Part shown: one piece after another, positions 18,613 to 63,131 of the stretch
How the letters are laid out: every line of letters starts with the position of its first letter
Position numbering within the stretch: the first letter of the stretch is position 1
DNA from: Microgenomates group bacterium
GTDB lineage: Bacteria; Patescibacteriota; Microgenomatia; UBA12405
DNA: 64,000 nt
Reading direction: 5' to 3'
Assembly: GCA_049303675.1 (NCBI GenBank)
Contig: JBAQNJ010000001.1
Coordinates: 536,711-600,710, forward strand
Program-made: the position numbers and the translations under genes
Notes under the pieces: generated by a model
Database searches by the model: none
What the model was told of the DNA's origin: nothing
What the model saw: the letters and a program-made list of their open reading frames with translations, nothing else

Positions 18613-19134
18613 ATGTTCAAACATATCACTATCGGCCCCAAAAGCCCTAAAATAGTCAATACCATTATCGAGATCACCAGTGAGACACGTAACAAATACG
18701 AATACGACGAAGAGTTAGGTATTATCAAGTTAGACAGAGTTCTCCATTCACCAGTTCACTATCCATTTGATTACGGATTCATCCCTGAAACTCTGTGTGA
18801 TGATGGCGATCATCTCGACGTCATGGTGATCACCAATGCCCCTACCTTCCCTGGCTGTCTAGTTGAGGTCAGGCCAATTGGTGCATTAATGATGGAAGAT
18901 GAACATGGCGGCGACGAAAAAGTCATCGCTGTACCTCTTCATAATCCTCAGTTTACTCATATCAAAAAACTAAAAGATTTATCACCCCATTTATTAGACG
19001 AAATTGAGCATTTTTGGCTTACCTACAAATTTTTGGAAAGAAAAAGTAAACCAGTCAAGCTCAGTGGTTGGATCAATCGCCTCGACACCTATCAGCTCAT
19101 CAAAGCGTCTCAGAAAAAACAGCAAAGCCAGTAA
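18613..19134 (+). CDS. ppa: inorganic pyrophosphatase (family I)
   Basis: 173 aa. EITSETRNKYEYD...DGDHLDVMVI pyrophosphatase motifs. Confidence 0.9.
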   Translation: MFKHITIGPKSPKIVNTIIEITSETRNKYEYDEELGIIKLDRVLHSPVHYPFDYGFIPETLCDDGDHLDVMVITNAPTFPGCLVEVRPIGALMMEDEHGGDEKVIAVPLHNPQFTHIKKLKDLSPHLLDEIEHFWLTYKFLERKSKPVKLSGWINRLDTYQLIKASQKKQQSQ

Positions 19135-19149
19135 TTAGTTTGCGCATCT

Positions 19150-19169
19150 AAATTGATATCAATTTAGCT
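19150..19169. promoter_or_regulatory. perfect 20-bp palindrome CTAAATTGATATCAATTTAG
   Basis: The sequence is self-complementary and lies about 90 nt upstream of the secreted-protein gene at 19261. Possible operator. Confidence 0.3.
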
Positions 19170-19260
19170 TCATACATTGCTATATTTTAGTACAGTCTGT
19201 TCTTAATAAATCCTTAATGTTGTCTTGATAATATCACTTGATTATAAATTAAATCAAAAT

Positions 19261-19746
19261 ATGAAAATTAAATTTCAAACCGTATTCAGTTCGCTTATTA
19301 TCATGGCTCTAATGTTTGTTAGCAGCACAGTTAGTGCCAAGGCGGCAATACTACCACTTAGACTCTCCGCCACTGCGCCCAAGTCAATCACTCAGGGACA
19401 AGTATTTAATCAGTCATTTGCCCTGATTAATCCAAACTCTTTTTTGAGACCTGCCATTCTTCCATTTAAAAGAACTGTGTTTTTTCCCAGTGATGTGATT
19501 TCAAATGTCCAAATAGTAAGTGTTACCAACGGTACTTTTTATAAACCTGTAATTACTGCCGAAGGAGTAACCTATTCTTGGGTTAACTCTGGATATGGGC
19601 TGAGAATGGGTACTGCATCTATCGTCAAATTGGCACTCACTGCCAATTCTACCAATAGTGGCGATCGCTTAAAAATGATGTCAATTGCCGATGTACTTGG
19701 CTATAGCTCACCCGCTGAATATTTTACCAGCTTGCTAAGTTTGTAA
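19261..19746 (+). CDS. secreted hypothetical protein with signal peptide
   Basis: ATG at 19261 within ORF 19225..19746. N-terminal hydrophobic segment ending AKAA. No known domain. Confidence 0.5.
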   Translation: MKIKFQTVFSSLIIMALMFVSSTVSAKAAILPLRLSATAPKSITQGQVFNQSFALINPNSFLRPAILPFKRTVFFPSDVISNVQIVSVTNGTFYKPVITAEGVTYSWVNSGYGLRMGTASIVKLALTANSTNSGDRLKMMSIADVLGYSSPAEYFTSLLSL

Positions 19747-19765
19747 ACTAGATATAAAAACCAAT

Positions 19766-19806
19766 ACCCTCCGCCATAACAATGGACAGGAGGGTATTTT
19801 TTTGTG
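19766..19806 (+). terminator. rho-independent terminator
   Basis: Hairpin ATACCCTCC...GGAGGGTAT followed by TTTTTTT. Confidence 0.65.
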
Positions 19807-19873
19807 ACCAAAATCCCAGAACATTCTCTAATTGTCGGGCTTGCCTCGACGAAGTTCGAGCGAAGTGAGAACG

Positions 19874-19898
19874 AAGTCGGGAATACTGGATTCGAACC
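19874..19898. repeat. 25-bp direct repeat duplicating the tRNA-Pro 3' end (attR-like)
   Basis: aagtcgggaatactggattcgaacc is identical to 20178-20202. It covers the T-loop and acceptor 3' strand but there is no 5' tRNA half here. Confidence 0.8.
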
Positions 19899-20177
19899 TC
19901 AGCCACAGGCTGATCCGCCTTTGGCGGAAGCAACTTCTTTCAGTATTATATCTCTAATTTTTCTACCAAAACCACTTTTGTAAAAGATCTCTCTATTGGT
20001 AGCATCATCCTTACAAATATATTTTTCAAAATATACTAATTCAAAAGGTATATTCTCTGCAGTAAATTTATTCATACCTCTATTATGTTTATTTAGCCTT
20101 ATCTCTGGCAGTTGTGATGTTTTACCAGTATATATTTTTCCATTTCGCAAACTTCTCAAGAAGTATACAAAATACAT
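19899..20177 (-). CDS. GIY-YIG nuclease family protein
   Basis: 92 aa from the ATG at 20177, immediately 3' of tRNA-Pro. MYFVYFLRSLRNGKIYTGKT...R...HNRG matches the GIY-YIG motif layout. The TGA stop lies inside the duplicated tRNA fragment. Confidence 0.75.
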   Translation of the reverse strand: MYFVYFLRSLRNGKIYTGKTSQLPEIRLNKHNRGMNKFTAENIPFELVYFEKYICKDDATNREIFYKSGFGRKIRDIILKEVASAKGGSACG

Positions 20178-20180
20178 AAG

Positions 20181-20254
20181 TCGGGAATACTGGATTCGAA
20201 CCAGCAACCTCGCGCACCCCATGCGCGCGCGCTAGCCAATTGCGCCAATCCCCG
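20181..20254 (-). tRNA. tRNA-Pro (anticodon GGG)
   Basis: Hand-folded cloverleaf: acceptor CGGGGAT/ATTCCCG, D-stem GCGC/GCGC, anticodon stem CGCGC/GCGCG with loop AUGGGGU, T-arm GCTGG-TTCGAAT-CCAGT, discriminator A. CCA is not encoded. Confidence 0.85.
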
Positions 20255-20371
20255 TGGTTGTAGACACTATTATACTATCTATATTATCTTTTGCCTAACT
20301 TTAAGTATATTCGGGTTATCTTCGGTTTTGCCTCTTGACTTGATATAGTTACAATTGCTATTACTTATATA

Positions 20372-20423
20372 TTAATTCAAATTCAATTCGTAATTAGTAA
20401 TTCGTAATTTGTAATTAATTAAT
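20372..20423 (+). repeat. degenerate heptamer array (aattcgt/aattagt/aattcgt/aatttgt/aattaat) directly upstream of recA
   Basis: It is near-identical (31/33) to the array at 29108-29142 upstream of miaA. The same heptamer is tandemly repeated inside cca at 37919-37950. Confidence 0.6.
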
Positions 20424-21518
20424 ATGGCCAAGAAATCAAAGTCTACCAAAACTCCAATTACTGTTAACACCAAAATCAATGACTCACTTCATGGCAAAAA
20501 GCTAGAAGCTGTTCGTCTGGCAATGGATCAGATCACCAAATCATATGGTGAAGGTGCCATCATGAAAATGGGCGACAAGCAGGCCGACATGAAAGTCGAG
20601 TCGATCCCCACTGGTTGTCTTCCACTTGATATTGCTCTAGGTATTGGTGGTCTACCACGTGGTCGCATTACCGAAATTTTTGGACCCGAGGCCTCCGGCA
20701 AAACCACTATTTGTCTTCATGTTATCAAAGAAGCCCAGCGACTCGGTGGCACCGCCGCCTTTATCGACGCCGAGCACGCTCTCGACCCACTCCGAGCCCG
20801 AACTATTGGTGTAGATCTAGACAGTCTGCTGATTTCCCAACCCGACAACGGCGAGCAAGCTCTGGAAATAGTTGATACCCTCGTTCGTAGTAATGCTGTT
20901 GATGTCATCGTTATCGATTCTGTCGCCGCCCTCGTCCCCAAAGCCGAAATTGAAGGTGAGATGGGGGACTCTATGATGGGTCTACAAGCCCGTCTGATGT
21001 CTCAGGCGTTGCGCAAACTAACTGGTGCTATCAGTAAATCCAAAGCAGTTGTCATCTTCACCAACCAAATGCGCCAAAAGATTGGCGTCATGTTTGGTAA
21101 TCCTGAAACCACTACTGGTGGCTTAGCCCTCAAGTTTTATTCATCAGTTAGAATTGATGTTCGCAAAATCGCCAACATCAAAACACCCAGTGGTGAGGCA
21201 GTTGGTTCTCAACACCGTGCCAGAATTGTCAAAAACAAAGTCTCTCCTCCATTCAAAGAAGCCGAGTTTGATGTCATGAATACCGAGGGCATCTCTGTCT
21301 ACGGTAGTTTAGTTGATTTAGCCGTCACCCATGGCCTAATCACCAAATCAGGCGCCTTCTTCAAAGTCGATGGCCAAAACATTCAAGGCCGCGAAGGTAC
21401 CAAAAAGTATCTCAAGGAAAACCCTGTCGTAGCCGAGGGCATAACTACCAAAATTTGGGAACTAATCAAAAATCCCTTAGTCAAAAATGCAGATTCTTCA
21501 GATCAGCCCGAGTCGTAA
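20424..21518 (+). CDS. recA: recombinase RecA
   Basis: 364 aa. The sequence carries GPEASGKTT Walker A and RecA L1/L2 loop regions. Confidence 0.97.
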
Positions 21519-63051: not shown

Positions 63052-63131
63052 GACTATTTATCAATTCTATCAAAATTCGAATCCACGCTGGGGTGATGAG
63101 TTATAGGGATAAAATTTGTGCCTAAAAACTG

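Follow-up and report, generated by a model that had tools for sequence, protein, structure and literature searches.

We analysed 64,000 nucleotides (nt) of contig JBAQNJ010000001.1 from a Microgenomates group bacterium (Patescibacteriota), referred to here as the window, in which a tRNA-Pro(GGG) gene is followed immediately by a very small gene for a GIY-YIG nuclease; together with the sequence behind it, this gene forms a candidate mobile cassette that is the subject of this report (Table 1). An earlier reading of the same stretch (the original prediction) had proposed the tRNA, a nuclease open reading frame (ORF) of 92 amino acids (aa) and an exact 25-bp direct repeat around the ORF, and ARAGORN, Rfam, Pfam and sequence shuffles confirmed all three. 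ARAGORN calls the tRNA one base longer than Rfam does (20180-20254, minus strand). Only the three nucleotides CTT separate the tRNA from the nuclease ATG, which begins 4 nt past the discriminator base. The repeat, GGTTCGAATCCAGTATTCCCGACTT, lies at two sites with a spacing of 304 nt, where shuffled sequence gives an expectation of zero matches with three mismatches tolerated; a search for additional copies, which the original prediction had proposed, found none in the window beyond these two. The 107-aa ORF that merges the nuclease with tRNA sequence, and that had been held to hide this layout, is present and is the product annotated by NCBI (P0001).

Closer inspection of the downstream copy revealed a structure that had been missed. 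The exact repeat stands, yet only 22 nt of it are tRNA, the remainder being a C plus TT of the flank, and it is not simply a repeated tRNA 3' end but one part of a longer tRNA fragment (approximately nt 44-73) split after nt 52 by a 30-nt hairpin insertion. The piece on the other side of the insertion, GAAGTTGCT, matches the corresponding GAGGTTGCT of the tRNA at eight of nine positions, and its counterpart in a syntenic relative (L001) is an exact 11-nt match to that relative's own tRNA. The end of the ORF reads GAAGTTGCT / TCCGCCAAAGGCGGA TCAGCCTGTGGCTGA / GGTTCGAATCC, where the uninterrupted tRNA reads GAGGTTGCT^GGTTCGAATCC. The hairpin pair occurs once in the window. The nuclease stop codon, previously placed inside the 25-bp copy, is a TGA (19901-19899) that abuts the copy instead and consists of the last three bases of a hairpin. 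The last approximately 12 codons of the nuclease ORF are translated tRNA fragment and hairpins, its tail SAKGGSACG being the hairpin pair in translation. A 61-aa ORF at 19748-19933 (minus strand) is another read-through of hairpin and tRNA sequence. Neither ARAGORN nor Rfam found a second tRNA around the 25-mer, and an Rfam scan of positions 19000-21000 (E <= 10) for other RNA families or a group I intron returned the intact tRNA only.

Table 1 Features of the tRNA-Pro(GGG) locus, in positions of the window
Feature	Position	Strand	Remarks
Sigma-70-like promoter, TAGGCA-17-TATAAT	20269-20297	-	Just upstream of tRNA-Pro; 10/12 positions, best match in 19600-20500
Intact tRNA-Pro(GGG)	20181-20254	-	Rfam RF00005, 56.1 bits, E=6.6e-11; CCA not encoded
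25-bp direct repeat, first copy	20178-20202
Stand-alone GIY-YIG nuclease gene, 92 aa, Slx1/UPF0213-like branch	19899-20177	-	Pfam PF01541
tRNA pseudo-copy, short 5'-side piece GAAGTTGCT	19929-19937	-	About tRNA nt 44-52; inside nuclease ORF
Double hairpin TCCGCCAAAGGCGGA + TCAGCCTGTGGCTGA	19899-19928	-	Precise insertion into tRNA pseudo-copy after nt 52
First hairpin, TCCGCC-AAA-GGCGGA	19914-19928	-
Second hairpin, TCAGCC-TGT-GGCTGA	19899-19913	-	Last 3 nt are the nuclease stop codon
tRNA pseudo-copy, 3' piece	19874-19898	-	22 nt of T-arm/acceptor 3' strand + CTT; second copy of 25-bp direct repeat
Trailer of ~40 nt, CGTTCTCACTTCGCTCGAACTTCGTCGAGGCAAGCCCGAC, ending in a small hairpin	19834-19873	-	Alignment of window, L001, L067 and L064
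Inverted repeat with T-runs on both strands	19758-19803		Putative bidirectional terminator
173-aa ORF, N-terminal hydrophobic segment	19225-19746	+	No Pfam match; between pyrophosphatase gene and cassette

The 92-aa protein scores 50.5 bits against Pfam PF01541 (cut-off 22.6, E=2.6e-13), carries 'FVY' and 'IYTG' as its GIY and YIG motifs, and among 19 homologues keeps Y16, R27, H31 and E63 invariant and Y5 nearly so. An AlphaFold2 (AF2) model (pLDDT 88.5) gives residues 1-85 a confident GIY-YIG fold of three strands plus helices and leaves the hairpin-encoded residues 86-92 disordered; the nuclease is the minimal domain only, with no auxiliary or DNA-binding domain. Comparison with GIY-YIG family profiles, to which the original prediction had left the assignment, placed the protein on the UPF0213/Slx1 side and not among homing endonucleases. 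In hmmsearch against solved proteins the UPF0213 members 1ywl (EF2693) and 1zg2 (BH0048) gave 3.7e-5 and 2.1e-4, and I-TevI 0.077. Foldseek matches of the model were GIY-YIG structures, with 1zg2 and several Slx1 proteins at a probability of 0.99-1.0 (TMq 0.58-0.65, root-mean-square deviation 1.7-3.2 Å) and the I-TevI catalytic domain at 0.8. The sole NCBIfam match, to the group I intron endonuclease family TIGR01453, is sub-threshold (18.4 bits against a cut-off of 56). A C-terminal Asn separates the UvrC/homing lineage from the Slx1 lineage (Dunin-Horkawicz et al., PMC1564403), and the homologue alignment has no conserved Asn after E63. By sequence and modelled fold, the nuclease resembles the Slx1/UPF0213 structure-specific nucleases more closely than homing endonucleases. 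It has no match in PHROGs, and none in PADLOC, on which ground a defence-system identity was rejected. Between the window and L001, nonsynonymous differences (pN 0.13) are far fewer than synonymous ones (pS 0.74, saturated), indicating that the nuclease is under purifying selection with dN/dS well below 1, a ratio of which only the direction is reliable because dS is saturated.

The only strong promoter match in 19600-20500 is the one upstream of tRNA-Pro. As the nuclease ATG lies 3 nt past the tRNA, co-transcription is the simplest reading, and the tRNA-Pro promoter likely drives a tRNA-nuclease co-transcript. A simple terminator scan found no canonical terminator after the tRNA fragment and did not call the inverted repeat at 19758-19803, which, judged by its symmetry and T-runs, likely closes both the tRNA-nuclease unit and the convergent 173-aa ORF as a bidirectional terminator.

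Close relatives were found via recA, which adjoins the tRNA and is 85-89% identical to that of the window. The relative L067 (recA 88%) has the same order of pyrophosphatase gene, tRNA-Pro and recA as the window and a clean tRNA with no nuclease gene, hairpins or fragment; the search for an empty site suggested by the original prediction therefore found one in the window's own synteny, bearing out its proposal of an insertion at the tRNA gene. L065 and L069 (both 86%) have a clean tRNA in a different gene neighbourhood near recA. In L064 (89%), a 5' fragment, a hairpin pair after nt 17 and a 55-nt spacer precede an intact tRNA, and the nuclease gene is absent; relative to L064, the window contains a 304-nt insertion bounded by the repeat. 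L066 (85%) carries the nuclease gene between two fragments broken at nt 8, upstream of the tRNA, in a segment inverted relative to recA. The locus is polymorphic for presence and absence, being empty in L067, L065 and L069 and filled in the window, L001 and L066, and the alignments show a cassette that has been gained, lost and repositioned among close relatives. The trailer behind the fragment is kept in L001, lies directly 3' of the intact tRNA in L064, and is absent after the empty-site tRNA of L067; its position in L064 suggests that it marks the outer flank of the insertion, and it may be either native sequence behind the tRNA or part of a mobile segment. As a dispersed repeat it was rejected, being single-copy in the window. 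The intact tRNA and the fragments beside it differ clearly as alleles of one isoacceptor in L015/L043 and L044, indicating that foreign tRNA sequence arrived with the cassette.

In a sixth relative, L063 (89%; 413-2006 and 2080-2340), the GIY-YIG gene upstream of the tRNA is a different one and comes with other palindromes (GTTCTGC-AAA-GCAGAAC and GTCTGC-TTT-GCAGAC), and the gene for a serine recombinase of 524 aa overlaps the tRNA 3' side in the manner of a classical island. Judged by these arrangements, tRNA-Pro(GGG) is a hotspot for multiple elements.

A profile of the 19 homologues yielded 62 loci, 20 in GTDB genomes and 42 in metagenomes, of which almost all belong to Patescibacteria; most of the sequences compared are metagenome-assembled. 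With the window included, a tRNA on the same strand (a tmRNA at one locus) lies at most 210 nt upstream or at most 260 nt downstream of the gene at 54 of 63 loci, against a chance expectation of about 1% estimated from the density in the window (2 tRNAs in 64 kb). The tRNA is often 0-3 nt from the nuclease ATG or overlaps the stop codon, and the targets comprise Pro(GGG/TGG/CGG), Ala(TGC/GGC), Val(CAC/TAC), His, Tyr and Leu(CAA/CAG/TAA). On its far side the gene usually bears a palindrome-interrupted pseudo-copy of the same tRNA, in one of two arrangements. In type A, which includes the window, the intact tRNA is followed by the gene, 8-14 nt of tRNA, the hairpins and the rest of the tRNA to its 3' end; in type B, a tRNA 5' part is followed by the hairpins, 6-13 nt of tRNA, the gene and then the intact tRNA, so that the gene is positioned between the tRNA promoter and the intact tRNA. 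In some type B loci the 3' stem of the second hairpin and the GG of the tRNA make a GGAGG upstream of the ATG. Both types have 3'-side tRNA sequence ahead of the gene and 5'-side tRNA sequence after it, so that the insert resembles a tRNA in circular permutation that encloses the nuclease gene; the tRNA is rebuilt at one junction, and the hairpins are at the other. The unit recurs at many tRNAs at a size of approximately 300-400 bp (304 bp in the window), in line with the earlier suggestion of a minimal selfish GIY-YIG element.

The strict double-hairpin motif was found at 42 of the 63 loci; most have it at a single junction, and 11 have it both before and after the gene. The 8+8 nt to the left and right of the hairpins together form, at 30 loci, an unbroken stretch of the neighbouring tRNA with no more than two mismatches, and here the hairpins are inserted precisely, with no duplication or deletion at the insertion point. 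The usual position is in the D-loop after nt 17 (AGTT^GG); in the window, L001 and L021 it is nt 52, breaks at nt 8, 12-13 and 57 also occur, and the duplicated part is often the 5' half. Some pseudo-copies (L010, L045, L005, L004 and L030) have hairpins inserted at 2-4 separate points (D-loop, anticodon loop and T-loop), and in L016 and L006 a second copy of the unit starts directly after the first. At L009 (2375-2420) and L035 (1833-1880), a hairpin pair downstream of the gene is followed by an inverted tRNA 5' fragment, AACTGCGCTACGGACCGA, on the opposite strand, indicating that inversions also occur around the hairpins. ARAGORN reports a 'tRNA-Cys' at L006 (2914-2999), but this is a tRNA-Pro(TGG) in which 11 internal nucleotides, GGCTAGAGCAT, stand twice where the hairpins are inserted, a duplication that may be a repair footprint or an assembly slip. 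At L053 (991-1378 and 1501-1713), a tmRNA gene precedes a more distant homologue by 122 nt, and neither a pseudo-copy nor a palindrome was found. In most loci the hairpins sit just 5' of G18, and Slx1-like GIY-YIG domains are also known fused to a TrmH-like tRNA G18 2'-O-methyltransferase (PMC1564403), which may tie this nuclease lineage to the tRNA D-loop by an independent route.

When 1.84 billion representatives were searched with the profile, 6,922 relatives passed E <= 1e-3 and, at E <= 1e-10, 834 cluster representatives remained. Database relatives often start too early (P0001 and many of P0142-P0291), their N-terminal extensions being translated T-arms (RFES, VRI) or hairpins (PEADQP, SAKGGSASGG). 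In a rough neighbour-joining tree of the nuclease, tRNA identity and arrangement (A or B) are interleaved.

The approximately 58 instances of the hairpin pair in the related loci represent 35 distinct 30-mers. The 30-mer of the window is predicted to fold into two 6-bp stems with 3-nt loops, and double compensatory changes occur in 7 of the 12 stem pairs, such as C-G/A-U in the third position of the stem and U-A/C-G in the first position; the observed values were reached by none of 500 shuffles, and sliding the partner columns abolishes the pairing. A single 15-bp palindrome, the alternative conserved fold of the 30-mer, was rejected, as it shows no covariation beyond shuffles. The loops read A-N-A and then T-N-T, which owing to the dyad symmetry is the same on the opposite strand. 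Loops and stems are kept whether they are translated, as in type A, or lie upstream of the ATG, as in type B, and the encoded tail is disordered, indicating that the constraint is not a coding one; a coding explanation was rejected. Between the window and L001, 68 consecutive nucleotides are identical across fragment, hairpins and flank despite saturated synonymous sites. A lineage-specific change in the acceptor is present in L021 in the tRNA and its second copy alike (ATCCCCGA, where both copies of the window have ATTCCCGA), indicating concerted evolution of fragment and tRNA. More distant nuclease clades (37-49% identity) have the same architecture with other palindromes: a perfect 20-nt palindrome at tRNA-Leu (CCTGCCTGCC/GGCAGGCAGG) and, at tRNA-Tyr loci, a different hairpin pair whose loops are mutually complementary. 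That different clades carry different palindromes at the same position suggests co-evolution of nuclease and palindrome.

Guided by these features, we propose, with a probability of roughly 0.6, that the window holds a member of a family of very small mobile cassettes of Patescibacteria (the candidate phyla radiation, CPR) that target tRNA genes and restore the tRNA they split. Three parts make up the cassette: the gene of a stand-alone Slx1/UPF0213-type GIY-YIG nuclease, a GC-rich double hairpin that is conserved, and part of the targeted tRNA. Read against the intact tRNA, the layout is that of a resident 5' part, an insert made of the 3' part, the nuclease, a short 5' part and the hairpins, and a resident 3' part, with the break in the window after nt 52 of tRNA-Pro(GGG). 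By this circular permutation, one junction rebuilds an intact tRNA and the other is a dead fragment capped by the hairpins. The anatomy of the unit, its recurrence at many tRNAs, its filled, empty and variant states, the purifying selection on the nuclease, and the conservation and compensatory pairing of the hairpins are the observations that carry the proposal.

A mechanism compatible with them can be sketched. The gene would be expressed from the tRNA promoter as a tRNA-mRNA co-transcript, and the mRNA left after 3' processing of the tRNA, which has no encoded CCA, would be almost leaderless. The Slx1-like nuclease may cut a DNA structure and not a long sequence, candidate substrates being the hairpin pair when extruded as two adjacent four-way junctions and/or tRNA DNA that forms a cloverleaf, and so make a break. 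RecA-type homologous repair of the break could then copy or integrate the cassette into a similar tRNA gene from a donor that may be a sister copy, taken-up DNA or a circular form, the tRNA pieces of the cassette serving as portable homology arms valid wherever the tRNA is similar. A circular or tandem form recombining via its longer tRNA arm would give type A when this is the 3' arm and type B when it is the 5' arm. Recombination between the repeats could produce both the gene-less remnant of L064 and tandem reiteration, and later gene conversion would hold the fragment identical to the neighbouring tRNA.

Several points weigh against this proposal. Each mechanistic step is inferred from sequence. 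The hairpin set was gathered by a pairing criterion, which makes its figure of 98.8% paired partly circular and leaves only the diversity of pair types and the rejected alternative fold as informative. In the fragment the hairpins disrupt the site, but the adjacent intact tRNA keeps the very sequence interrupted there (0/16 mismatches in many loci), so that an endonuclease homing simply by sequence would go on cutting the copy in its own host. The retention of that sequence and the absence of a recognition domain from the protein favour a structure-specific action, although the difficulty remains. No tRNA was found within the scanned range at nine more distant loci (L012, L020, L024, L046, L051, L052, L054, L058 and L059), and neither the viral contigs of IMG/VR nor the phage records of INPHARED contain relatives; a phage origin, likewise without a match in PHROGs, was rejected. 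Finally, the cassette is old and was vertically inherited between the window and L001, and such long maintenance could mean a role that benefits the host.

The last point leads to the alternative of a domesticated module, in which a small Slx1-like housekeeping or defence nuclease is carried behind tRNA promoters and the tRNA duplications and hairpins are by-products; stalled forks or R-loops at heavily transcribed tRNA genes might be the substrates that such a nuclease processes, or it might serve as a decoy or guard. Long vertical retention, strong purifying selection and an expression tied to a housekeeping promoter all fit this view, as does the mostly vertically inherited, repair-related nature of the Slx1/UPF0213 lineage (PMC1564403). 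The tandem reiteration in L016 and L006 also resembles the nuclease-driven local amplification reported for T4 SegB at tRNA loci (PMC13096335). We nevertheless consider a domesticated module unlikely, since the unit is present or absent, and inserted at different positions of the same tRNA, in close relatives, its many tRNA targets interleave on the nuclease tree, and foreign tRNA alleles stand beside resident fragments. Nor did PADLOC return a match, and most tRNAs in a genome are apparently without a cassette, among them the window's other tRNA, tRNA-Gln at 63131.

Alternatively, the hairpin pair could be an independent miniature palindromic element, similar to mitochondrial GC clusters or double-hairpin elements, that enters dispensable pseudo-copies and is unrelated to the GIY-YIG gene. 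Pseudo-copies with 2-4 separate hairpin insertions and the hairpins without a gene in L064 would be explained in this way. A free element should, however, be dispersed across the genome, whereas the pairs occur only beside these genes or tRNAs (one in the window, none elsewhere in approximately 250 kb of loci), always within about 25 nt of the gene, and the palindromes differ by nuclease clade, which makes such independence improbable.

The original prediction had described the locus as a classic attL-island-attR integration into a tRNA 3' end, perhaps the eroded remnant of a larger island, which would make the nuclease the last passenger of an integrase-mediated element. A direct repeat of the tRNA 3' end does flank the insert, and a true recombinase element, with the serine recombinase of L063, exists at the tRNA-Pro 3' side. 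Yet no integrase or transposase is encoded in the unit or within approximately 6 kb, where the neighbours are rpsD, rpoA, rplQ, bacA, ppa, recA, recX, the gene for RNase Y and ABC transporter genes. The repeat of the 3' end is peculiar to the small clade of the window and not family-wide: breakpoints lie mostly inside the D-loop, with duplications of the 5' half, and a conserved hairpin pair marks the junction. Erosion is contradicted by the minimal content shared by more than 50 independent loci, every relative being equally small, as well as by the purifying selection on the nuclease and the 68 identical nucleotides. The island reading is largely refuted and its residual probability is very small. 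That the unit is merely a local tandem duplication or an assembly artefact is scarcely credible, for although repeats can mislead assemblers and an N-run in L003 and the 11-nt tRNA duplication in L006 invite caution, the same architecture is present in more than 60 contigs from independent projects and assemblers, some of them 0.5-1.5 Mb long.

Among known systems, the proposed cassette would work most like a free-standing homing-endonuclease cassette, the nearest example being SegB among the tRNA genes of phage T4 (PMC2330249). SegB and the other free-standing GIY-YIG genes of T-even phages share with it a nuclease gene among tRNA genes, presence/absence polymorphism and a spread inferred to proceed via break-induced homologous repair (PMC2330249; PMC13096335), and a nuclease-linked local amplification of tRNA segments is reported for SegB. 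The Seg/I-TevI proteins, however, are members of the UvrC+/homing branch and, at approximately 200-250 aa, include a linker and a DNA-binding domain, whereas the cassette encodes no more than a 92-aa domain of the Slx1/UPF0213 type. Splitting and rebuilding of a target tRNA is no part of the SegB system, which also has no hairpin module and resides in a phage, not on a bacterial chromosome. The best matches in sequence and fold, and in being a minimal domain, are the Slx1-like/UPF0213 (COG2827-type) proteins and eukaryotic Slx1 (PDB 1zg2, 1ywl, 4xm5, 6seh and 7cq2). Slx1 is a structure-specific nuclease on branched and stem-loop DNA, to which the cassette nuclease is likened by sequence and fold. 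Bacterial Slx1-like proteins have been described as minimal, non-selfish and mostly vertically inherited, with the selfish GIY-YIG enzymes derived from the other lineage (PMC1564403), whereas the cassette subgroup appears to behave like a mobile element tied to tRNA genes and hairpins.

Islands and prophages that target tRNAs also insert at a tRNA gene, regenerate the tRNA and leave a direct repeat of tRNA sequence, but they span 5-100 kb and encode a recombinase, whereas the cassette has 0.3 kb, no recombinase, breaks usually in the D-loop and hairpins at the junction. IS200/IS605 elements (TnpA Y1) and REP/RAYT systems similarly combine a small protein with conserved DNA hairpins in cis, and their insertions are precise and make no target-site duplication. 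The cassette hairpins are conserved with covariation and precisely inserted, and in most loci they are confined to one junction. The cassette differs from both systems in lacking a HUH/Y1 transposase, in hairpins that are not dispersed in the genome, in the duplication of tRNA sequence and in an integration that is apparently homology-based. The tRNA group I introns of Patescibacteria occur in the same phylum and likewise involve tRNA genes interrupted by mobile DNA, but Rfam detects no intron RNA in the cassette, and the tRNA is duplicated rather than interrupted. A recent survey of these introns does not mention palindromes, hairpins, duplications, pseudogenes or GIY-YIG genes, and its survey of homing endonuclease genes covers intron-internal ORFs only. 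The cassette is not a member of the Seg/I-TevI family, of the integrase islands, of the IS200/IS605-like elements or of the tRNA group I introns.

Partial parallels exist in fungal mitochondria, where mobile endonuclease ORFs (that of Allomyces atp6 and the 'mORFs' known from arbuscular mycorrhizal fungi) bring with them a second 3' end for the gene that they invade. They restore that gene and leave its resident part as a downstream pseudogene, as the cassette appears to do, and GC-rich double-hairpin elements of Allomyces mitochondrial DNA are, like the cassette hairpins, associated with mobile DNA. The mitochondrial ORFs differ in having protein-coding organelle targets and in encoding LAGLIDADG or full-length GIY-YIG endonucleases. 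To our knowledge, no fixed architecture of nuclease, hairpin and target has been described for them.

Two further features border the cassette. In L067 the pyrophosphatase gene abuts tRNA-Pro directly, indicating that the gene of the 173-aa ORF is also variable at this locus. On the other side, tandem 14-mers (AATTCGTAATTAGT / AATTCGTAATTTGT) at 20385-20412 (plus strand), directly upstream of recA, may be an operator or leader element, and a similar AT-rich sequence, GTAATTCGTAATTA, stands ahead of recA in L066.

We found no description of the nuclease-hairpin-tRNA architecture in the full-text literature, within an incomplete coverage of journals. A bolder and distinctly tentative extension of the mobile-cassette proposal is that it represents a previously unrecognised class of autonomous mobile element, the smallest known (approximately 0.3-0.45 kb), in which a bare Slx1-type nuclease and a dyad-symmetric double hairpin copy themselves into tRNA genes by means of folded tRNA-gene DNA and portable tRNA homology, rebuilding the genes as they do so. 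If true, this would give the widespread bacterial UPF0213/Slx1-like proteins their first biological role and the 'non-selfish' Slx1 lineage selfish members. If the mobile-cassette proposal itself is right, a 92-residue nuclease with 30 nt of hairpin would suffice for a mobile element that targets highly conserved tRNA genes without killing them. The family offers a concrete candidate function for bacterial Slx1/UPF0213-like GIY-YIG proteins, namely that of a hairpin- or cloverleaf-specific nuclease with a known cis site, and the compact, tRNA-directed, homology-armed insertion module may possibly be useful as a tool. The family explains systematic annotation errors such as ORFs begun inside tRNAs, tails and extensions translated from hairpins and T-arms, and pseudo- or mis-typed tRNAs, and it would add a route for tRNA gene turnover and for the horizontal replacement of tRNA alleles in the reduced genomes of the CPR.

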